Positions 7,311 through 52,626 of a DNA stretch of 64,000 nt are shown piece by piece. Made by a program: the position numbers and the translations under genes. The DNA is from Leptolyngbya sp. Prado105 (lineage in GTDB: Bacteria; Cyanobacteriota; Cyanobacteriia; Leptolyngbyales; Leptolyngbyaceae): contig JALOOO010000007.1 of NCBI GenBank assembly GCA_025454375.1, positions 908-64,907 on the forward strand, written 5' to 3'. Under the pieces are notes generated by a model, which ran no database searches, was not told the DNA's origin, and was given only the letters and a program-made list of their open reading frames with translations. The stretch's first letter is position 1. The number at the start of each line of letters is the position of its first letter.

Positions 7311-9035
7311 CTAGCTCCCCGGCTTCAAATAATCCAACAATCGATCGCCCGAATCTGCTCTGACCAATCCCACCGCAATATCCGGCAACACTCGCCGACT
7401 CGGAAACACCAAATAGCGCGGCTCCCACCTCGGGCGAAACTTCTCCTTAAACTGATGCAATCCCTTAAAGTTATAAAACTGATTCAAATGCTCAAAGAAG
7501 TAATGCAATCCCTTCTCCACCCGCTGAGCATCTGCCGCCTCTCCCACCCCAGCTAAAGGCGACAAACTAAAATTAAAACTGTCATACCCCTCTTGCTGAA
7601 AATGCTTTAGCATCTCTGCAAACAGAAAATCCATCGTGCCTTTCTCAGCGCGATCGACATGTCGCATCAAATCCACAGTTACTTCCTTGCGATTGTAGCC
7701 AGAAAGTAAATTAGAAAACGCGATCGCGTCTCCATTGCCATCTTCAATCACGGCAATATGGCATCCTTTCAAATACTCAGGATTAAACCAGCCGATCGAA
7801 AACTGCTTTTCTGAACCTTGCTTTGACTTTAACCATTCATCACTCACGGGTTTGAGTCTTGCAATTAAGCGATCGTCGATCGGAGGAGCATAAACCTGAA
7901 GCTGATACCCCGCTTTTGAGAGCTTATTAATTGCGGTTCTAAAGTCTTGATTTGCTTTTCCTTTCAAGTTAAAAGTACGCAGATCAATGATTGCTTCTTC
8001 GCCAATCTGTACCCAGCGGTAGCCTAAAGACTGATAGAGCGGCAATGTCTCAGGTAGCACTTCGTAAAATGTCGGAAACCAATCATTTTGATGGCAAAAC
8101 TCTCGAAAGCTCACAATTGCTTCTTTACGATCGTCACTGTGCCCGATCGGATCGCCCAAAGTAATCGCAGCCCGACCCTTTGCAACATAGGCAATCACGC
8201 TTTTACCGGATGGGCTAAAGTAGTAAGACTTGTCGGGGAGTAACGACAATCGAGCGAGCGAAGTCTGACCATACTCATCAATAATCTGACGAGCTTTCTT
8301 ACGATCGAATAACGTTGCGGGATCACCTCGGAGTAACACCGGACGCAGCAACATCAACAAGGCATAAGTCATCGTGACTAACCCGACCGCATAGATCGAA
8401 TGGGCAAAGAAATCGCCATAGCGTCTAGATGGCTCTAACCCAGCATTATCTGCTGTAAAAAACATCGCAAGCGTCTGCCAAATCGCCTGCTTGAAACTGA
8501 AATTAATCGGCTGTCCACTGACCTTAAAGTAACCATCGAGCCAATAAAACCCGATCGTGCCGTAAGCCAAAGTAAATAGAATTGCAACAACTAGCGCTCG
8601 AATCCCTTGCGCGATCGAAGGCGGATCGGATTTTGCCGTATAAACCTTTCTCAAGACAATCAGTTGAATCAATAAAATCATTGCTAAAGTACTTTCTTCA
8701 ATATCAAAGCCTTTAATCAAATGGCTCAAAATTGACAGAATGAGCAATCCAACGGTGAGGTACCAAGCCACCTTTTTTCGTCTGAGTAAATTCGCAGCTA
8801 AAGTTAGTAAAATAAACCCGGATAATGCCGCAAATAAATGTCCTCCAGCCCGAACCGAGAAGGGCAGAAAATGCTTCAGCCAAGCCGTCCGCTCAGGATA
8901 GCTCGGCGCGATCGCAGAAATCAAATTCACCCCTCCCATCACAGCCGTCAAGATCGCGGTCGATCCAATCCCGAAGCGAGTTTTGCGATCGACATTTCCC
9001 TCAATAGTTTTACGGCTTGAAAAGAACTGCTGCAT
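7311..9035 (-). CDS. mprF: Aminoacyl-phosphatidylglycerol synthase, MprF/LPG_synthase_C (DUF2156) family, short membrane domain
   Basis: About 6 TM helices then a cytosolic domain with DKSYYF, GDPIG, GEEAIIDL, FSIGWF, VDLMRH, FYNFKGL..FKEKFRPRWEPRYL. ATG 9035 lies 4 nt after the esterase stop. Confidence 0.85.
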   Translation of the reverse strand: MQQFFSSRKTIEGNVDRKTRFGIGSTAILTAVMGGVNLISAIAPSYPERTAWLKHFLPFSVRAGGHLFAALSGFILLTLAANLLRRKKVAWYLTVGLLILSILSHLIKGFDIEESTLAMILLIQLIVLRKVYTAKSDPPSIAQGIRALVVAILFTLAYGTIGFYWLDGYFKVSGQPINFSFKQAIWQTLAMFFTADNAGLEPSRRYGDFFAHSIYAVGLVTMTYALLMLLRPVLLRGDPATLFDRKKARQIIDEYGQTSLARLSLLPDKSYYFSPSGKSVIAYVAKGRAAITLGDPIGHSDDRKEAIVSFREFCHQNDWFPTFYEVLPETLPLYQSLGYRWVQIGEEAIIDLRTFNLKGKANQDFRTAINKLSKAGYQLQVYAPPIDDRLIARLKPVSDEWLKSKQGSEKQFSIGWFNPEYLKGCHIAVIEDGNGDAIAFSNLLSGYNRKEVTVDLMRHVDRAEKGTMDFLFAEMLKHFQQEGYDSFNFSLSPLAGVGEAADAQRVEKGLHYFFEHLNQFYNFKGLHQFKEKFRPRWEPRYLVFPSRRVLPDIAVGLVRADSGDRLLDYLKPGS

Positions 9036-42954: not shown

Positions 42955-43205
42955 GGATTTGCGATCAAATAACATCCCTAAGCTTCGATTGGGTTCCGCC
43001 GCGCGTAAACGGCGGGCGATTGTCTCAACTCCTCTGGAACTGGACTCAGCCTTGCTGAGCGAATGCAGCCCGGTTTAGCAGGGTTGGTTTGATTAGCCCA
43101 CCATTCATACAAGCAACGCAGCATGGTTGATACGTTTGGGACTTTATGAGTGAGTAAGTTCCTTAGGTCGATTCGTTGATCAAATTATTCATTTCAGTTT
43201 TGCCG

Positions 43206-43243
43206 CCACCGATGTCTTTTAGATATTGGTGGTTTCACTTTTT
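43206..43243 (+). terminator. Plus-strand terminator-like hairpin
   Basis: CCACCGATGTCT-TTT-AGATATTGGTGG (two G.U pairs on plus) then TTTCACTTTTT. Confidence 0.6.
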
Positions 43244-43571
43244 ATCTAGATGAATTCTGCCAAATTAGGGGCGAATTTCATCAATGCCTCAAGAAAACTG
43301 CAATCTAACAGGTGTTAACGCGCAAAATCTCTCAGTATTTCTTCCGTTAGGATCTGTAAATTCCGTAGATGTTCTAGTTAACGAGATCTGACCCTACAGA
43401 GCATTATATGAGGAGATTTCATATTTAAGTAAAGCGCAGTAAGTACCTACGTAAAATCTAGGAGCTTTTAGGGTTTTCACTTAAAAACCTGCCTCATCTC
43501 AACTTCTAAGCCTCCCAAGGTAACAAGAAATTGAGCAGATTTCTTTGTTCTATCGATGATCCTGTAGAGTT

Positions 43572-46346
43572 ATGCATCGCTATTTATACGTTCTGTCTTT
43601 AGCAGTCAGCCTGCTGGTTAATCTTCTCTCTATAAAAAGCGCGATCGCAACTTCTAATCTGAAGATAGAACCGATCAATCCTTCAGAAATTTCAGATGAG
43701 AATAGGCTCAAGTCAATCTCTGAAATCAGCGAAGACAGTCCAGTCATTGCACAAGTCATTAATCCGCCGCCCAGCGAGATCATTGTTCCGCCGCCCCTCG
43801 ATGAGCCAGAGATCAATCAGCCGCCTCAGCCTCCGGATCTGAAACCTCCAGAACTTCCGAAACCTTCAGAACCTCCGAAACCCACGATCGCAGATCCAGA
43901 AGTTTCTAAAAAACTACTTAATGCCATTATTTTAAATGCGATCGGCAATAGCTCGAAGCGCTTTCCCTGGCTGGTTAATCCAGCAAGTAACTTACTAGAA
44001 TCTACTACATCATTTACGCCTGCCAAGACCGAAAACTATACCGATATTGACATTCAGTATCGCGATAATCAGCTTCTGATTCGAGAGTTTGATGCAGCAA
44101 ATTTTCCTAAATCCGATCAGTTCTATTGGGTCTTACCCAAAAATCGGATTGTCATCGAAACTCGAGGCTGGCAAGCTGGAATTGACTATCAAGGACAAGA
44201 AAGAACGCTTGAAATCGATCAACGAATTCGCTTGACCCAGGCACTGTGGGGATTACAAGCTGTTTGGTCTTTACCTCAGCCGTTTCAAGACCTATACGGT
44301 AGAACAGATACAAGCCAATTTACGATACAAGCCATTTCGGGCGAGGTCAGCAATCCAGTTGGAGTCGCTGCTCCTCCTGTGATCATTAACAATACAACGC
44401 TGAGTCCCACTGCGATTCGCATTGCTCCACCGCCAAGACTTGGCACTGGCTCAAGCAACAATTCCAATGGTGGAGGCTCACTGTTCCAGTTTCTTGAAGC
44501 TGAAAATGCACCTTTGATCCTTCAAGCCTATCCAACAAGCAATTTGCAGCCGCTTATGGAAGCAGAAGGATTATTCGTAGGCGCAAAAATTCCGCCATCT
44601 GTCTTAGAAGCAGCCAGAATTGGCTGGAAAAATCCATTCACAGGCGAAGGGCAGTCAACGGCTCCGGTGATGAGTTCTGCTCCTGGCATTAAAGTTGGGC
44701 AGTTAGGTAAGTTTGACAATCTTGATTTGCTCAATCTGCTCGTGAATCCTAGCCTCGATTCAACAGAGCGAACCTTAGCTTATCTCAATTCATTATTCTG
44801 GATTCCATTGGGGCAGAGAAAACCCGATATTTTACGCACGCGAGTAACCCAGCAAGATGAGCTTTTTTGGCATCGGTTGTCGCTCAATCAGCCTCACAAT
44901 CGTACTCTACTGCAATATGATGCGGTTCGACCTCAAGCAACTTACACAAATGTCTTTGCGAATCCTGGCTTTTCTCTATCATTTTCGATGAAGAAAGGTC
45001 AGGTCAATGATCTCCAGTCGTTGAATTCGAGTTTGGGACTGTTACTGGGGGGAGTGTTTAGTTTTATTCGACCGCAAGATCTGACGCAAAGTTTAACAGA
45101 GAGCCGCGATCGCTACGATCGCCGAGAAGCATTTTCTGGCATTGTGACTAAAGCCACATCGAATCAAAGAGTTGCAATTAATCAGCGTCTGAATCGAGGC
45201 TTGTACTATGCTAATACAACCAGTGGTCTGAGACAGATTTCAGGGACATTCACGTTTCCTAGCATCATTACACCGACTCATGCTGAACTCTTTCAGATCC
45301 GTGCTGGCAATCAACGCCGCTTAGCCCGTTTTTTGCAAGTCGAAAGTACTTGGATACCTGGAAATACTTATTTCTCACGGTTAGAACTCTCAAATCGAGA
45401 CTTTGGACAACTATCGTTTATTGGGATGCCAGTAAATTCGAGTTTAACTGGACTTACCTCGAATCGTTCTTCTGCGACTCAAGTGGTAATTCAAGCCCCC
45501 GATGGACAGGAGTTTGTACAGGATTTCTCGTCCTCTTCACCTGATCCTACCGTTGTGCCGATTGGGATTCGATCGTCGGATATTGCCTTCGATCGCATTG
45601 AATTCACGCAATTTGGTCGCGGCAAAACTCAAACCAATCGGTTTGAGGGATATCTATTTCTTCCGGCAGTGGAAGCGATGTTAGCAGGCTCTTCGGGGAA
45701 ATGGAACTATGCAGTGAATACGGGAGTTTGGTTTAACCTCAATGGAGATGCTGCTTTTGAAGTTGCAAGGAATAACCTAGGTGATCCTGAGCCTAGTGTT
45801 GGGGTTTACCTGAACTCTTTGATCAATCATATTGACACTCGTGTGGTCAATGGCTCTGATGGAAAAGCAAAAGCGATCGTCAATCTAATTCCTTCTTTGC
45901 GCTTATCTTGGAGTAGTGTGCCGAATGCGTCTAATCCAGCTTATCTGAACTTGAGCTATACCTACACGCGACAGCAAAGACAGCTTAACTATTCCATCAC
46001 GCCTGGTTTCTTTTTAAGTTATAGCAGCGATCGTTTAGCTCCAGTCGGCTTCTTTCAGGGACAGCTTGGATTTAAGAGAGGTTTAGAATTTCGCTCTTCC
46101 CTTGAACTCAATAGTCAATTCTTTTATAGCTTGGAAGCATCGCAACGCTTAAGTGCGATTTGGTCAGCAGGTTTCTATGTGCAGAACTATCGATCGACTG
46201 AGAGCCTGATTAATCGAGAATCTGCTATGTCCTATGGCATTATTTTGAGAAATCGTTCTGCAAAACAGGGATTCGATTGGCGATCGCGCTTTGGCATGAG
46301 TGGCAATCAGCTTGAGATTCGGCTAGAAGGCGGCTATCAGTTCTAA
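43572..46346 (+). CDS. Large hypothetical exported protein (924 aa), probable C-terminal outer-membrane beta-barrel
   Basis: Signal peptide, Pro-rich linker, alternating hydrophobic beta-strand pattern in the last 150 aa or so, terminal EGGYQF. Confidence 0.75.
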   Translation: MHRYLYVLSLAVSLLVNLLSIKSAIATSNLKIEPINPSEISDENRLKSISEISEDSPVIAQVINPPPSEIIVPPPLDEPEINQPPQPPDLKPPELPKPSEPPKPTIADPEVSKKLLNAIILNAIGNSSKRFPWLVNPASNLLESTTSFTPAKTENYTDIDIQYRDNQLLIREFDAANFPKSDQFYWVLPKNRIVIETRGWQAGIDYQGQERTLEIDQRIRLTQALWGLQAVWSLPQPFQDLYGRTDTSQFTIQAISGEVSNPVGVAAPPVIINNTTLSPTAIRIAPPPRLGTGSSNNSNGGGSLFQFLEAENAPLILQAYPTSNLQPLMEAEGLFVGAKIPPSVLEAARIGWKNPFTGEGQSTAPVMSSAPGIKVGQLGKFDNLDLLNLLVNPSLDSTERTLAYLNSLFWIPLGQRKPDILRTRVTQQDELFWHRLSLNQPHNRTLLQYDAVRPQATYTNVFANPGFSLSFSMKKGQVNDLQSLNSSLGLLLGGVFSFIRPQDLTQSLTESRDRYDRREAFSGIVTKATSNQRVAINQRLNRGLYYANTTSGLRQISGTFTFPSIITPTHAELFQIRAGNQRRLARFLQVESTWIPGNTYFSRLELSNRDFGQLSFIGMPVNSSLTGLTSNRSSATQVVIQAPDGQEFVQDFSSSSPDPTVVPIGIRSSDIAFDRIEFTQFGRGKTQTNRFEGYLFLPAVEAMLAGSSGKWNYAVNTGVWFNLNGDAAFEVARNNLGDPEPSVGVYLNSLINHIDTRVVNGSDGKAKAIVNLIPSLRLSWSSVPNASNPAYLNLSYTYTRQQRQLNYSITPGFFLSYSSDRLAPVGFFQGQLGFKRGLEFRSSLELNSQFFYSLEASQRLSAIWSAGFYVQNYRSTESLINRESAMSYGIILRNRSAKQGFDWRSRFGMSGNQLEIRLEGGYQF

Positions 46347-46489
46347 TTCACCAGAGATCGAGGTTGTAAAATTGGCAGGGGAGGTGCGAGAATTGCACCG
46401 CTGATTGATGAGGTTTGTGCTGATGCCGATGTAGCAGTCACTGCCACCATACTCGCTAACCCAACTAAAATAAATACGCCGCGCAACAA
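46343..46489 (-). pseudogene. Frameshifted, truncated paralogue of the 46715-47164 gene
   Basis: TTG 46489 with GGGGAG SD gives ILVGLASMVAVTATSASAQTSSISGAI; after a 1-nt loss (ATT-CT-CGC vs ATT-ACC-CGT) the other frame gives RTSPANFTTSISGEL, versus VLVGLAGLVAIAAAPASAQNASVSGAITRTSPAGFSTSISGEM. Confidence 0.8.
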
Positions 46490-46621
46490 CGAACTTCTCC
46501 CCTAAGAGATATGAATTACGATCAGAAAACCTTACAGCCTTTATTGCCCGACTTATCAATCTATCTGGCACTGTAATGGAGTTGAATAGATGATGAATAG
46601 AGTCTCGCTGAAGGATGAGAT

Positions 46622-46659
46622 AAAAAAATCAGAGATGCGATGAATGCACCTCTGATTTT
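46622..46659 (-). terminator. Intrinsic terminator of the 46715-47164 gene
   Basis: Minus strand AAAATCAGAGGTGC-ATTCATC-GCATCTCTGATTTTTTT. Confidence 0.8.
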
Positions 46660-46714
46660 GACTTAGACAATACTGCTCAAAGGCAGTAGAGGTCAGTTAA
46701 GTTGATTACTAGAC

Positions 46715-47164
46715 TTAGGGCAAGGGGGGTTCTTCAGCAGGGATCTCGATAAAACCACCAGTCGGATTAGATTCCAATCCATCAACACCAGCAGCAGCCT
46801 TCAAGATTGCAGCATAAGCATCAATGCCCATTTCTTCGGTGAGGGGAAGATCTCTTAGAGTTTCAGCAACAACTTGCTCAAGCAAAGATGAAGCACCTGA
46901 AGTCGGCATGAATTCGATGGCTGCATCGATTTCTAACGTCGGATCAGTTGAGCTAGCAGTTCCTGTAACGCTCAAAGGACCCTCGAAGTACATGCCTGCG
47001 GGTGCAACCATTTCACCAGAGATTGAGGTTGAGAAACCAGCGGGAGAGGTACGGGTAATTGCACCACTAACCGACGCGTTTTGTGCAGAAGCAGGTGCAG
47101 CAGCAATTGCTACTAATCCAGCCAAGCCAACTAAAACAGACGCAGAACGAGATAAGAAACTCAT
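46715..47164 (-). CDS. Small secreted Ala/Ser/Thr/Gly-rich hypothetical protein
   Basis: GAGGAG SD before ATG 47164; signal peptide ending ASA-Q; C-terminal AYAAILKAAAGVDGLE plus acidic Pro-rich tail. Confidence 0.8.
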   Translation of the reverse strand: MSFLSRSASVLVGLAGLVAIAAAPASAQNASVSGAITRTSPAGFSTSISGEMVAPAGMYFEGPLSVTGTASSTDPTLEIDAAIEFMPTSGASSLLEQVVAETLRDLPLTEEMGIDAYAAILKAAAGVDGLESNPTGGFIEIPAEEPPLP

Positions 47165-47504
47165 TGTCAATACTCCTCTAACTTTTACGCATCTAACTCT
47201 GTAATTCATACAAAGTTTGTATGGATTTATTATTCAACAATTAACGATGAACTCCCATAGAGACTTTACTTAATCTATGTAGTAACTTACTAAATTTCGC
47301 TGCTTAACTTAGGTATAAATTACATATTGCTCTGACAAGTAGAAGAGTTTGATTTTACTGTTCATTTGCTTCTTGTACGAACTTAAATTACTTAGGTTAG
47401 GAAGGTTTGAGCGAGTCCTCAATCCCCTTAAATGCTTATGTATACACTATCGTATCCATAAGCATCAGCCGCAGTTATCCCAAATCAATCTGGTACTAAA
47501 ATGC

Positions 47505-47533
47505 AAAAGCGGGATGCGTTAATTCATCCCGCT
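47505..47533 (-). terminator. Terminator-like hairpin after the RTX gene
   Basis: AGCGGGATG-CGTTAATT-CATCCCGCT with a short T run on the minus strand. Confidence 0.65.
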
Positions 47534-47568: not shown

Positions 47569-50500
47569 TTAGGCAAAGAAGAATGTCGCTTGATTGCCAA
47601 GGGCTAAGTTCTGATTGAAGTTGCTAGGGGTAAAACCACTGGTACTCATCAAAACAATCAATTGTGTGCCTTGACCAAATCCTAGCGCTTGATTTCGCAA
47701 GGATAAGACTGTGGTTGAACCATTATCAACCACATCAATATTCATAGCACTGTCAATTCTGAGTTGATCACCATCGACCCCTCGCCGGAAATTGGTGATC
47801 ACATCGCGACCATCCCTTGATGTATAGACCACCAGATCAATTTCTCGATCGAGTCCCAAATCAATGAGATCGTTGCCGCGTCCACCGATTAAAGTATCGG
47901 CTCCTCTTCCACCTCGAATCGAGTCATCCCCTGCAAATCCTCTCAAAAGATTGTTCTCGTCGTTGCCAAAAATCTGATTATTCAGCGCATTGCCTGTGCC
48001 ATTGAGCGCAACCCCAGTTAGAGTTAAGTTCTCGATATGGTCACTCAATGTCCAATCCACTGAGGATGTGATAGAGTCTGTTCCTTGATTCAAAGCTTCT
48101 GTCACAACATCAGCGAGATTATCCACAACGTAGTTGTCATTTCCCAATCCTCCAATTAAGATGTCTGCACCTAAACTGCCATCTAGATTGTCATTGCCAG
48201 CACCCCCGACTAAACGATTGTTGCCTGCGTTCCCGATGAGAGTATTTGCGAGGCTGTTTCCAGTGCCATTGATTGCAGCCGAACCCGTTAAGGTGAGATT
48301 CTCAACATTGGCTGGGAGCATATAGGTCACAGAAGAGATAACTTTATCCGTTCCCTGACCTGCTAGCTCAGTGATTGTATCGCTAGCAGACTGAATGATA
48401 TAGGTGTCACTGCCAAAGCCACCGATTAAGATATTGGTTCCAGCGCCACCACTAATCAAATCATTACCAGAGCTACCATCCAATCTATCGTCACCAGCAC
48501 CGCCCCAAATTGAATCAGCATTGCTACTTCCAGAGAACGTAATCGCACCTGCATAGGTTGAGAAATCGAATTCTTCAAATTTGCGAATCACCAATCCTGG
48601 GACATTTGTGATTTGTGTGTTGACATTGGTCATGTCTACGGTAATAGATATCGTTCCATTGGTTAGCACAAAGCGATCGTCACCGTCTCTTCCATTAAAT
48701 TGATCGTTTTGCTGCACTTGAGCAGAGTCAACAATGACACGATCGTTGCCGAATCCACCGATGAATTGATCGCTTGAGATCGTTCCTAGAAAAGTGACTG
48801 CCCCGAAATAATCACTAAAATCGAATTCCTCAAAATTCTGAAGCGTCAGTCCTGAAATACCGCTAATTTGGTTACTTGCTGCTGGATTGATCGTCAAGTT
48901 GACAAACCCAGCACTGAGCGCAAACCGATCTCTCCCGGCTCCACCATTGATGTCATCATTTTGCACAACCTGCTCAAATTGAGCATTAACGGTGTCATTT
49001 CCGCCCCGTGCGTTCAGTTGATCACGTCTCAGCGTGAGTGTGAAAGTTTCGTCAGCACTCGTGCCATTGATGACTTCTCCAACATTGATCAGAATCGATT
49101 GACCCACTTGCAATGCTGTAATGCCACTATCCCCATTGCCATTGTCATTGACAGTTACTGAAACTGTATCGGTTGTAGAAGCAGACCCACTCTGGTAGGA
49201 CAAAGAAGCAAGCGCCGCGTTCAGATTATTGAGGCTACCGCTCAGTTGAAAACTTTGACCACTGTTACCCGGCACAACCGTTAGACCATTGGTTGTCCCG
49301 AATATGAGGGTTCCAGTTCCGACAGCAACAGTGACCGTCAGAGGAATTGCGTTATTCGCATCAATATCAGCGATACTGATGCCAGAAATCGCAGTTGAGC
49401 TATTCGTGTTCACGTTCTGGAATCCAGGAACACTGAGCGTCGGAGCATCGTTGACCGCTGTAATATTTAGCTTTGTTGTGGCGATCACACTGGTTTGTGC
49501 GCCATCATTTACGACAAATTGAATTTCTCGACTGGTAGTGTTTGGATTGTCGCTGAGGTTGCGGTAGGCGATCGACTTGAGTGCGTTCTCGTAGTTCGCA
49601 ATTGTAGTGGTTCCGGTAAGTGCTAATATCCCATTGTTAAACGTTCCTGAAATCCCGTTTTGATTGGTAAATAGGAGTTCGTCTTGTCCTGCAACAAAAT
49701 TCGCGATCGTGATGGTCGCTCCATCTATATCGTTATCGAAGTTGGTAATGGTTAGGTTGGAACTGGTTAAAGTTGCTGAACCATTTTCGGTAAAGCTGGT
49801 TGCAAAATTACTGCCGGGACTTGCACCATTGAGATCGAGTGTCAGGGGTGGGCGAAGTTGAATCGATCGAGTCGCAGTGAGTGGATTGCTCCCATTTGCA
49901 CCATTTCCATTGTCGTTTACAGTAATGGAGAGGGTGTCTACAGTATTGCTGCTGGCTCGATACGACAAAGAGGCAAGGGCTGTATTGAGATCACTGAGAC
50001 TGCCACGAATCTCAAAACTCTGCACATTTGTAGTTCCGTTCCCCGATACTACGGTGATTCCATTCTGTGTACCGAGCGAGAGAGTTCCAGTTCCCGCAGA
50101 AACTGTAACATTCAGAGGGATCGTACTGTTGGCATCGACATCAGCAATACTGATGCCAGCGATCGCAGTTGAAGCATTAGAATCAAATCCCTGAGTTGCC
50201 GGAGCGTTGAGAAGTGGAGCATCATTGGTCGCGGTGATGCTGAGGGTTGTGGTGACGATCGGGCTAGAGCGCACATCATCGAATAGAACAAACTGAATGT
50301 CTCTTGCGATCGTGTTTGGATTGTCACTGGAGTTTCGGTACTGAATCGAACTTAGAGCAGTTCGGTAGTTCGCGATTGTTGTCGTTCCCGTTAGGGTAAG
50401 GACTGCGTTTGTGAAAGTTCCGCTGATGTCATTTTGATCAGTAAATAGAAGTTCATCTTGTCCGGCGACAAAATTTACGATCGTAATCGTTGCTCGATCA

Positions 50501-52440
50501 ATCTGATTGTCAGAATTGGTAATTGCTAAAGTGTTGCTAGCTAGAGAAACCGTCGCACCGTTTTCAATAAAGGCTGCTGCGAAATTGCTACCCGCACTTG
50601 CTCCATTGAGATCTAGCGTCAGTGGAGTTGGAGGATCGAGTCTCCATAAGCGATCGCCACCAGAGCCGCTATTTGCCGAGAAATACAGCGTTCCATTGAC
50701 ATTCGCCAAATTATCCACGTCAGATCCAGTACCGCCTAGTCGAATGTCTTTTACAAGTAAGGCTTGACCGCTCAGAGGATCAACTTTCCAGAGTTCAACT
50801 CCATTGGCGGCAGAACCATTTGTGGCTGAGAAGTACAATGTGCCATCGACATTGACGAGCGATCGCGGATCGGAATCGCCTGAAGTATGAATGTTTCTAA
50901 CCAATGCTGCCTGACCATTCGCATCAATCTTCCAGAGTTCAAGGCCATTCACACCATCATTTGCTCTGAAATACAGCGTTCCGTTGACATTCGTAAGAAG
51001 TTGCGGATTAGAGTTACCTGTAGGGTTAATATTGCTTACTAGCTCTGCTTGTCCATTTGCATCAATCCTCCAGAGTTCAACTCCATTCGTACCATCATTT
51101 GCTGTGAAGTATAACGTTCCGTTGATATTAGTAAAATTCGAGAGAGAAGAACCCGTTGATCCACCCCGAATGTCTCTCACTAAAGTAGGAACTGCTCCTA
51201 GCGCGATAGTATCAAACTTCCAAAGTTCGGCTCCAGTTGCAGGAGTGGTAGTGCCTGCTGCTGAGAAGTAAAGAATTCCATTAACGTTGGTGAGATTCCT
51301 AGGTGTGGAACTTGCAATACCCGATCGAATATTATCAACAAGTTGAGCTTCACCATTTGCATCCAGTCTCCACAACTCAATGCCATTCGTCGTATCTCTT
51401 GCTACAAAGTAAAGTGTTCCATTCACATTTACCAGAGATTCAGGATCAGAATAGCTTGGGGCTGTAGCACTTGCCACGACGCTTAGTTGTCCAGTTGGAT
51501 CAACCTTCCACAGTTTTCGACTTGCGCCATCATCTGCTGAAAAGTAGAGTGTGCCATTGATGTTAATCAACTCTTCAGGAGCAGCATTTCCACCTGCATT
51601 GATGTTGCCGACTAACGATGCTGTGCCTGTGGGCGAGTCAACTTTCCACAGTTCAACCCCGTTTACCCCATCATTGGCGGTAAAGTAAAGTACCCCATTT
51701 ACATTCGTCAGATTAGTAGGAGAAGAATTGAGACTGCCCGCAGCAATGTTTCTAACCAGTGCGGCTTGACCTGTCGTAGGGTTGATTCGCCACAATTCAG
51801 TTCCATTGCCATCGCTTGCCGAGAAGTACAAAACACCATTGACATTGACAAGATTAGTCGGAGCGGTGTAAGTCCCTGCTACAGGCACAGGATCATTTGC
51901 TAAAACCGATCGGTAATTCGATCGCGCTTCTAGCCCAAAAGCCAATTCAGTCCGAATTTCTCCAGTTCTAACTTCTAGCTGCCAATTCCCGCCAAGTTCC
52001 GCAGATCCGGTCTTGGTTACAGAAGCTGCGATCGTGGCTCCAGTCAGTTCGCTCATCTGCTGCAAGAAGGCTTGTGAACCTTGAGCCACTTCGCAACCGT
52101 AGATTAAAATCTCTGCATCTGCACCCAATGATCTAGCCCATTGCATCAACGATCGAGCATATGGTTCAATCGTCGATGTACTGAGTTTTGCTGTCCCTAG
52201 TAAAATCGTGCCTGGAGTTCCATGAGACACGATATGAATGGCTCCAATCTGCCTTCGTTGGGCTAATACTGTACTGATCTGGATTACACCATCGCCATTC
52301 AGCAAAATGACTTCAACGTTCGATCTCACTCCTGCAACGAGACTAGAAAAATCAGGAACAGACGGATCGATAAACGCAATTTCTGTACAATCGCTTAGAT
52401 CTAAAACAGCAGCGCCAAACTGGGGTGCAGAAGCAGACAT
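47569..52440 (-). CDS. Giant surface protein: DUF4347 + ELWxxDGT-like repeats + two cadherin-like modules + RTX Ca-binding repeats
   Basis: FIDPSV..HIVSHGTPG..YGCEVA..GGNWQLE (DUF4347); nine xLW(R/K)xD/N repeats with LVNVNGTLYFSA; duplicated 259-aa module starting 50625 and 49848; GGAGDDRLDG/GGAGNDNLDG nonapeptides; no signal peptide. Confidence 0.9.
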   Translation of the reverse strand: MSASAPQFGAAVLDLSDCTEIAFIDPSVPDFSSLVAGVRSNVEVILLNGDGVIQISTVLAQRRQIGAIHIVSHGTPGTILLGTAKLSTSTIEPYARSLMQWARSLGADAEILIYGCEVAQGSQAFLQQMSELTGATIAASVTKTGSAELGGNWQLEVRTGEIRTELAFGLEARSNYRSVLANDPVPVAGTYTAPTNLVNVNGVLYFSASDGNGTELWRINPTTGQAALVRNIAAGSLNSSPTNLTNVNGVLYFTANDGVNGVELWKVDSPTGTASLVGNINAGGNAAPEELININGTLYFSADDGASRKLWKVDPTGQLSVVASATAPSYSDPESLVNVNGTLYFVARDTTNGIELWRLDANGEAQLVDNIRSGIASSTPRNLTNVNGILYFSAAGTTTPATGAELWKFDTIALGAVPTLVRDIRGGSTGSSLSNFTNINGTLYFTANDGTNGVELWRIDANGQAELVSNINPTGNSNPQLLTNVNGTLYFRANDGVNGLELWKIDANGQAALVRNIHTSGDSDPRSLVNVDGTLYFSATNGSAANGVELWKVDPLSGQALLVKDIRLGGTGSDVDNLANVNGTLYFSANSGSGGDRLWRLDPPTPLTLDLNGASAGSNFAAAFIENGATVSLASNTLAITNSDNQIDRATITIVNFVAGQDELLFTDQNDISGTFTNAVLTLTGTTTIANYRTALSSIQYRNSSDNPNTIARDIQFVLFDDVRSSPIVTTTLSITATNDAPLLNAPATQGFDSNASTAIAGISIADVDANSTIPLNVTVSAGTGTLSLGTQNGITVVSGNGTTNVQSFEIRGSLSDLNTALASLSYRASSNTVDTLSITVNDNGNGANGSNPLTATRSIQLRPPLTLDLNGASPGSNFATSFTENGSATLTSSNLTITNFDNDIDGATITIANFVAGQDELLFTNQNGISGTFNNGILALTGTTTIANYENALKSIAYRNLSDNPNTTSREIQFVVNDGAQTSVIATTKLNITAVNDAPTLSVPGFQNVNTNSSTAISGISIADIDANNAIPLTVTVAVGTGTLIFGTTNGLTVVPGNSGQSFQLSGSLNNLNAALASLSYQSGSASTTDTVSVTVNDNGNGDSGITALQVGQSILINVGEVINGTSADETFTLTLRRDQLNARGGNDTVNAQFEQVVQNDDINGGAGRDRFALSAGFVNLTINPAASNQISGISGLTLQNFEEFDFSDYFGAVTFLGTISSDQFIGGFGNDRVIVDSAQVQQNDQFNGRDGDDRFVLTNGTISITVDMTNVNTQITNVPGLVIRKFEEFDFSTYAGAITFSGSSNADSIWGGAGDDRLDGSSGNDLISGGAGTNILIGGFGSDTYIIQSASDTITELAGQGTDKVISSVTYMLPANVENLTLTGSAAINGTGNSLANTLIGNAGNNRLVGGAGNDNLDGSLGADILIGGLGNDNYVVDNLADVVTEALNQGTDSITSSVDWTLSDHIENLTLTGVALNGTGNALNNQIFGNDENNLLRGFAGDDSIRGGRGADTLIGGRGNDLIDLGLDREIDLVVYTSRDGRDVITNFRRGVDGDQLRIDSAMNIDVVDNGSTTVLSLRNQALGFGQGTQLIVLMSTSGFTPSNFNQNLALGNQATFFFA

Positions 52441-52626
52441 TCCGGTGAACTCCAAACAGAACGTCCCTAGCATTCCCGATGCTGATCGCAACTTAGATGG
52501 GCTTATCTCGTTAATTTCACGAATTCAGTAATATAACCGAGCAATTACATGCCTTAAGTTTGGGAATGCCGCTGCAACCGTGAAATTCCCGGGAATTTCT
52601 TGCCGAAAGATGAGCAATTTTGTGGA

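Follow-up and report, generated by a model that had tools for sequence, protein, structure and literature searches.

The window analyzed here is a 64,000-nucleotide stretch from Leptolyngbya sp. Prado105 (contig JALOOO010000007.1, positions 908 to 64,907). It contains a large gene and a small gene that converge on each other and encode secreted proteins of 924 and 149 amino acids (aa). This pair is very probably a pilin/barrel locus of the cyanobacterial tubular (CT) type, named for the CT pilus that Ricca et al. described in Microcystis aeruginosa in 2025 (Nat Commun, PMC12397347). A preliminary description of the window had listed a secreted, beta-rich protein of 924 aa, a convergent 149-aa protein with its own Shine-Dalgarno (SD) sequence and terminator, a decayed copy of the latter, AT-rich upstream regions, and an adjacent RTX giant. 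All of these are in place, and the locus is laid out as follows.

43572..46346, + strand: large gene, encoding the 924-aa predicted outer-membrane beta-barrel (open reading frame [ORF] and translation)
46715..47164, - strand: small gene, encoding the 149-aa pre-pilin, a divergent CT-pilin homologue (translation, homologues, AlphaFold2 [AF2], Foldseek, and hhalign)
46343..46489, - strand: remnant of a second pilin gene, 5' end only (match to a hidden Markov model [HMM], nucleotide identity, and synteny with L. boryana)
46625..46659, - strand: intrinsic-terminator-like hairpin 3' of the pilin gene (14-pair stem, then a T run)
47165..47506, - strand: AT-rich region upstream of the pilin gene, containing the SD sequence (sequence and GC content)
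47534-47507, - strand: terminator of the RTX gene, which bounds the pilin upstream region (terminator prediction)
43234..43571, + strand: AT-rich region upstream of the barrel gene (GC content of 0.36-0.38)
43205-43233: terminator-like hairpin after a DUF308 gene, which bounds the barrel upstream region
47569..52491, - strand: gene for a 1640-aa DUF4347/ELWxxDGT/RTX surface protein (Pfam and NCBIfam matches)

The regions upstream of both genes have a GC content of 0.36-0.38, compared with about 0.45-0.47 inside the genes. The SD sequence of the small gene is a GGAG placed 9 nt ahead of its ATG, and the terminator with the 14-bp stem (46659-46625, -) lies directly past its stop codon. Because terminators follow both the small gene and the RTX gene, the small gene is seemingly monocistronic.

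The second pilin copy keeps only its first ~48 codons, comprising the signal peptide and the N-terminal motif, and is frameshifted. The cut falls precisely on the stop codon of the large gene, which the 3' end of the remnant overlaps on the opposite strand. The remnant (46343..46489) matches the small-family HMM with an E value of ~5e-8, and 125 nt of it are 73-76% identical to the 5' ends of intact copies. The syntenic region of Leptolyngbya boryana CZ1 has the order threonyl-tRNA synthetase (ThrRS), DUF4347-RTX, pilin (142 aa), pilin (143 aa), large protein (925 aa, convergent), DUF308, and response regulators; its two pilins share 88% identity with one another and ~73% with the window copy. 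The host of our locus is a relative of L. boryana, and the window has lost, by deletion, most of the pilin copy nearest the large gene. The remnant retains a start codon, the signal peptide, and the N-terminal motif, and a secreted peptide of ~48 aa could still be made from it.

The small protein carries a Sec-type signal peptide (residues 1-27, ending in ASA with Q following) and has a Cys-free mature part of 122 aa that is rich in A, S, G, and T. Neither this protein nor the large one matches Pfam or NCBIfam in library scans. Its family forms about 56 clusters in a set of 5.8 billion proteins and is marked by the mature N-terminal motif NASVSGA(V/I)T.T.PAGF.TSIS.E.VAP.G..F and the C-terminal motif LDAYAAILKAAAG.DGLE. 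We rejected an N-x-S glycosylation sequon within the NASVSG motif, as it is not conserved across the wider small family. An AF2 model built from 57 sequences (predicted local distance difference test [pLDDT] of 83-87 in the core) has beta-hairpins at residues 31-39/45-53 and 58-69/76-85, followed by helices at 94-105 and 111-125. The top match of this model in a Foldseek search of the PDB is 9btq, with an E value of 0.09 and a probability of 0.80. The entry is described as an "extracellular tube from Microcystis aeruginosa PCC 7806SL" (PDB 9btq).

That tube is the CT pilus, a rigid structure 110 Å wide made by M. aeruginosa PCC 7806SL (PMC12397347). It consists of a 1-start helix of pilins joined via double-layer antiparallel beta-sheets, and its heavily O-glycosylated pilin, MrpC (BH695_0841), is composed of "two long beta-hairpins" and "a helix-turn-helix motif" (PMC12397347). 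The cluster BH695_0836-0841 encodes the pilin, a pilin-like protein, an O-GlcNAc transferase, an FkbM methyltransferase, and a beta-rich "adhesion" protein (0837), plus a "cell surface protein" (0836), and the authors proposed an "outer membrane porin" of the cluster as an usher-like outer-membrane platform (PMC12397347).

The topology predicted for the small protein is the fold described for the CT pilin (AF2 model compared with PMC12397347), and the mature forms of the window pilin and MrpC are alike in being 122 aa long, Cys-free, and A/S/T/G-rich. We compared an alignment of window-type pilins (A3) with an alignment of MrpC-type pilins (A4) by hhalign, which gave a probability of 93.9% and an E value of 1.6e-7 over 101 columns, with ~24% identity over the aligned core. 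Core motifs common to A3 and A4 are [S]VS[GA]A[VI]T ... E.V.P ... F.G. The iterated HMM of the window family likewise matches the MrpC-type pilins of loci L043, L044, and L045 with E values of 1e-8 to 1e-12. The small genes of these three loci, all of which stand beside large-family genes, encode proteins 39-45% identical to 9btq (tblastn), and those of L044 and L045 match 9btq by phmmer with E values of 1e-18 to 1e-19. Since profile-profile comparison, topology, and synteny agree, the small protein is a homologue of the CT pilin. By analogy with MrpC, it would be expected to form tubes.

Some loci carry longer relatives of the pilin. L037:12940-14529(+), L039:6660-8261(-), and L040:14577-16211(+), all from one cyanobacterial family, encode secreted proteins of 529-544 aa with four tandem pilin-like modules behind one signal peptide. 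Each lies beside a normal single-module pilin and could be a preformed arc or nucleator of the tube. A genome of the Microcystis family has a 373-aa open frame with three tandem MrpC-type pilin modules (G218:C189:1608-2666, +), located on a contig other than that of its large gene. At L041:11248-12207 (-), the large gene faces a convergent gene for a secreted protein of 319 aa. Its likeness to the pilin motif is limited to the N terminus (ADTVSGSVTFTSAG...), and the protein may represent a subunit that has diverged further or been extended.

The large protein begins with a signal-like segment of the Sec type (MHRYLYVLSLAVSLLVNLLSIKSAIA, followed by T), continues into a Pro-rich low-complexity stretch, and ends in ...EGGYQF, in which the terminal F and G920 are conserved in more than 90% of 52 homologues. 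More than 100 full-length homologues (37-81% identity) were found, all of them cyanobacterial and all labeled "hypothetical." Their hosts include Leptolyngbya, Nostoc, Anabaena, Nodularia, Fortiea, Scytonema, Alkalinema, Moorena, Geminocystis, Halothece, Snowella, and Microcystis. Sequence conservation is even across residues 121-924; residues 1-120 vary. In the Microcystis-type large proteins (L129:10001-11410 and L047:7046-8314), the conserved body is preceded by an N-terminal extension of ~470 aa containing near-perfect tandem repeats (…IAQIPAQEFLSADTQLAPFTIPATPAIIDTWEIPTTTIKLEIDSSGDRS…).

An AF2 model from 52 sequences (mean pLDDT of 80, predicted template modeling [TM] score of 0.66) shows a disordered Pro-rich stretch at residues 20-105, a helix at 109-135, and then more than 30 beta-strand segments up to the C-terminal Phe. 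The strands are broken by a mixed region at ~300-405 and by three long helices at 480-550. Foldseek matches of the model in the PDB are almost exclusively outer-membrane barrels (TbpA, BtuB, FimD/PapC, LptD, porins, and CdiB), with probabilities up to 1.0 and query-normalized TM-scores of just 0.15-0.2; a search of BFVD gave nothing useful. At the sequence level, phmmer finds no match among PDB sequences, and there is no Pfam match to TonB-dependent transporter (plug, TonB_dep_Rec), OstA/LptD, or porin domains. A profile search of 1.84 billion representative proteins returned 76 clusters, all of them family members or fragments, with no tail of distant relatives outside the family. Since this search recovered only the large family, it provides no link to ushers, TonB-dependent transporters, LptD, BamA/TpsB, or secretins. 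The large protein is thus predicted to be a large beta-barrel of no known family and has no specific transporter relative, in agreement with the preliminary description, which had suggested an outer-membrane-like protein of an unrecognized family.

The same family is found in Microcystis itself. Protein P0198 of M. aeruginosa DA14 (1354 aa) matches the large-family profile over its C-terminal ~880 residues with an E value of 8e-205. The P0198 locus comprises a 152-aa pilin-like protein (72% identical to 9btq), TPR-GT41, GT41/FkbM, a 270-aa protein, P0198, and an unrelated convergent dynamin gene. Because this repeats the published gene order, we assign the large family to the "cell surface protein/outer membrane porin" of the CT cluster.

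To follow the two families across genomes, we used 301 evenly sampled cyanobacterial genomes. Of these, 22 (from 14 of 134 genera) carry the large family, nearly always in single copy. Window-type pilins occur in 14 genomes and MrpC-type pilins in 5, so that the window-type clade (Nostoc, Leptolyngbya, Alkalinema, Moorena) is ~3 times as frequent among genomes as the MrpC type. All 18 genomes with either pilin type are among the 22 with the large family, and none of the other 279 genomes has one. The pilins are therefore strictly coupled to one barrel family, which bears out the co-occurrence expected of a functional pair. For window-type pilins alone (14/22 versus 0/279), Fisher's test gives p = 8e-19, a value that overstates independence because the genomes are related; the pattern nonetheless holds across families. 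In the other four large-family genomes, the candidates next to the large gene are more divergent, e.g., a 255-aa two-module protein (L038) and the 319-aa secreted protein of L041.

We also assembled 99 non-redundant loci and counted pilin ORFs within 10 kb of the large gene. One to four were present in 87 loci, making tandem paralogues of the small gene common, as the preliminary description had anticipated. Most of these ORFs (119/143) share the arrangement seen in the window, converging on the large gene from its downstream side. No third gene is conserved across the 99 loci, and no conserved chaperone or ATPase is encoded there. Genes of the GT41/FkbM type stand only beside MrpC-type pilins (L043-L045, L047, and L129). 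Because the glycosylation genes and the small "adhesin" are missing from the window-type clade, the conserved core consists of pilin and barrel, and because these two genes consistently co-occur in cyanobacteria, the barrel is the best candidate for the CT assembly machine.

We therefore consider it probable that the locus is a divergent, minimal CT pilus locus, in which the pilin is served by the barrel as a dedicated exit and assembly platform. The preliminary description had proposed an undescribed export/assembly pair for sheath, biofilm, or adhesion, a candidate surface-fiber or coat system, by analogy with systems that combine a channel with small polymerizing subunits. The analogy was reasonable, because co-occurrence, paralogues, and the predicted barrel all held up, and the pairing of a channel with a subunit is now better supported. 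The role of the barrel in export and assembly is a step that we, like others in the literature, infer, and for this role taken alone our confidence is only somewhat better than even. The system can no longer be called undescribed: the small protein is remotely homologous to the CT pilin in 9btq, and the large family had already been flagged as a possible usher-like platform (PMC12397347). Its product is most likely a rigid tubular pilus instead of a sheath or coat.

Under this interpretation, the 149-aa protein would be a Sec precursor cleaved after ASA, and the 122-aa mature pilin would polymerize through lateral pairing of antiparallel beta-sheets to give a rigid, hollow tube at the surface like that of MrpC/BH695_0841. 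The 924-aa barrel is presumably inserted by the beta-barrel assembly machinery (BAM) via its C-terminal Y-x-F end, with a variable Pro-rich N terminus in the periplasm and a conserved helical insert. Its most likely function would be to give the pilin a dedicated way out at the outer membrane and a platform for assembly. The locus encodes no periplasmic chaperone. Export would be driven by the energy of polymerization or folding, as in the chaperone-usher and curli systems. Subunits could leave singly, either unfolded or in the form of a ribbon one subunit wide that corresponds to the 1-start helix, with coiling outside the cell as in type 1 pilus rods; in a second route, the barrel would merely anchor the base of the tube. 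Speculatively, the helical insert at 480-550 might act as a gate or bind the pilin, and the paralogues and four-module fusions may have nucleator or adaptor roles.

A bolder proposal, which we make tentatively and hold to be somewhat less probable than its opposite, is that the pilin and the ~900-aa barrel form a self-sufficient two-gene pathway and a new class of outer-membrane pilus assembly machine. Such a pathway would need no chaperone, ATPase, or glycosylation; the single-chain barrel, with its conserved helical insert, would handle export of the pilin as well as templating of the tube, and the window-type clade would be the commoner form of CT pili.

Several observations weigh against a CT pilus exported by the barrel. 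The hmmsearch of the small-family profile against PDB sequences misses 9btq, and the pilin relationship is therefore remote; the structural match to 9btq also has an E value no better than 0.09. The TM-scores of the large model to known barrels are low. The large family was equated with BH695_0836 via gene order in a strain of M. aeruginosa other than PCC 7806SL. No GT41/FkbM gene is present among the genes flanking the pair in the window or in window-type loci, and the 270-aa Microcystis "adhesin" is absent by tblastn from the window and from ~125 other fetched loci, being found only in the Microcystis-like L047. A tube 110 Å wide cannot pass through a single barrel as such. Lastly, co-occurrence is equally compatible with an anchor or receptor as with a channel.

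That last point is shared by an alternative in which the pilin forms a tube and the barrel is its anchor or base, its tip, or a receptor, with the pilin leaving through a general secretin, in vesicles, or by lysis. The large-protein N terminus varies in length, up to the ~470-aa repeat extensions of Microcystis, as it does in many surface and anchor proteins, and the UniProt-based label in PMC12397347 is "cell surface protein." We nevertheless regard this alternative as unlikely. No other conserved gene in ~100 loci could provide the export route, the best Foldseek matches in the PDB consist almost entirely of transmembrane barrels the size of transporters, ushers, or LptD, and the variation is confined to the N terminus, residues 121-924 being uniform.

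It is more improbable still that the small proteins share only a fold with CT pilins and are, instead of filament subunits, either monomeric or oligomeric secreted cargo or else a plug or gate, periplasmic or lumenal, for a specialized transport barrel. Tandem paralogues (up to four) and secreted four-module fusions are typical of polymerizing subunits, the mature length, composition, and topology match those of the CT pilin, and the large partner comes from the same family as in a proven pilus cluster. These points stand against the low identity to MrpC (only ~24% over the aligned core), the differing C-terminal motifs (LDAYAAILKAAAGxDGLE versus RFGDxxGIVxxW), and the lack of glycosylation genes in the window-type clade, all of which would suit a cargo or plug. 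The idea that the pair and the giant RTX protein form one adhesion system, e.g., for anchoring or displaying a type I secreted adhesin, draws on the adjacency of the RTX gene and on similar giant RTX or cadherin-like neighbors in L037, L039, and L045, but is very improbable, given that such a neighbor occurs in just 4/99 loci by RTX-motif screen (plus L037 by sequence clustering), that the RTX gene has its own terminator, and that RTX proteins are so numerous in cyanobacterial genomes that some adjacency is expected.

Compared with the CT pilus of Microcystis, the minimal CT locus proposed here has the same kind of pilin, namely, a Sec-secreted, Cys-free, A/S/T/G-rich protein of ~122 aa in its mature form with two beta-hairpins and a helix-turn-helix. 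In both, the large protein belongs to the same family, and the system is restricted to cyanobacteria. Beside the pilin, Microcystis has a pilin-like paralogue, the window a truncated, frameshifted remnant, and L. boryana CZ1 two intact copies. The differences are also clear. The homology of the window pilin is remote, with profile-profile comparison needed to detect it, and the N- and C-terminal motifs differ; the locus is without an O-GlcNAc transferase, an FkbM methyltransferase, or the 270-aa beta-rich "adhesin"; and the large gene is convergent with the pilin gene, whereas the two are co-directional in Microcystis. The host is of the filamentous Leptolyngbya type and not a planktonic bloom former.

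Chaperone-usher systems (FimD/PapC with FimC/PapD) resemble the pair in combining small, often paralogous Sec-exported subunits with a single large barrel dedicated to them in the outer membrane and in having no ATP source. The Foldseek matches of the large model include FimD and PapC as generic barrel matches (TM-score for FimD of 0.17-0.29). However, neither protein contains PF00577 or a related usher or chaperone Pfam domain, the loci have no conserved third gene and the locus here no chaperone gene, and the window pilin does not have an Ig-like fold with donor-strand exchange. Curli (CsgG/CsgA/CsgB) and Fap (FapF/FapC) similarly join an outer-membrane channel to small paralogous beta-forming subunits that polymerize outside, a paralogue being a possible nucleator. 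Neither system is related in sequence or fold to the window pair: CsgG is a lipoprotein nonamer and FapF a trimeric 12-stranded barrel, whereas the window protein is predicted to be a single chain with ~800 residues of barrel, and an ordered double-layer beta-sheet tube would be expected in place of cross-beta amyloid. The pair belongs to a divergent clade of the recently described CT pilus family and is a member of neither the chaperone-usher nor the curli/Fap systems.

The window-type clade may already be inside the PSI-BLAST set of the authors who described the CT pilus (PMC12397347). New here are the pilin-barrel coupling across genomes and ~100 loci and the recognition of a clade without the glycosylation and "adhesin" genes. 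Only pilin paralogues and one family-specific barrel always accompany the pilin, and the nature of the tube-building machine therefore becomes a two-gene question. Leptolyngbya boryana and Nostoc are genetically tractable. Both carry the clade and would be easier models than Microcystis. The likely range of the tubes, until now planktonic bloom formers, also comes to include filamentous cyanobacteria that form mats and symbioses, in which the tubes may serve adhesion or matrix building and not buoyancy.

Other neighbors of the pair were weighed as partners. The RTX giant, whose position next to the pair is syntenic in L. boryana, was rejected as a conserved partner on the locus counts given above. 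In all, giant RTX or cadherin-like repeat proteins stand beside the pair in five loci from three families: the window (47569-52491, -), L048:4296-9191, L037:137-7930, L039:443-6166, and L045:1-4536. This adjacency is too rare for a core part but may be above chance. TPR proteins and two-component regulators were rejected as generic families grouped through repeats or generic domains. ShlB/TpsB, TPS-domain, and CHASE2 cyclase neighbors were likewise rejected, as they occur in one metagenome-assembled genome only. In that genome, from the Synechococcales (L001:59-3652 and 7994-8294), the genes around the pair encode a CHASE2-guanylate cyclase, a ShlB/TpsB-type transporter, and a protein with a TPS (two-partner secretion) domain.

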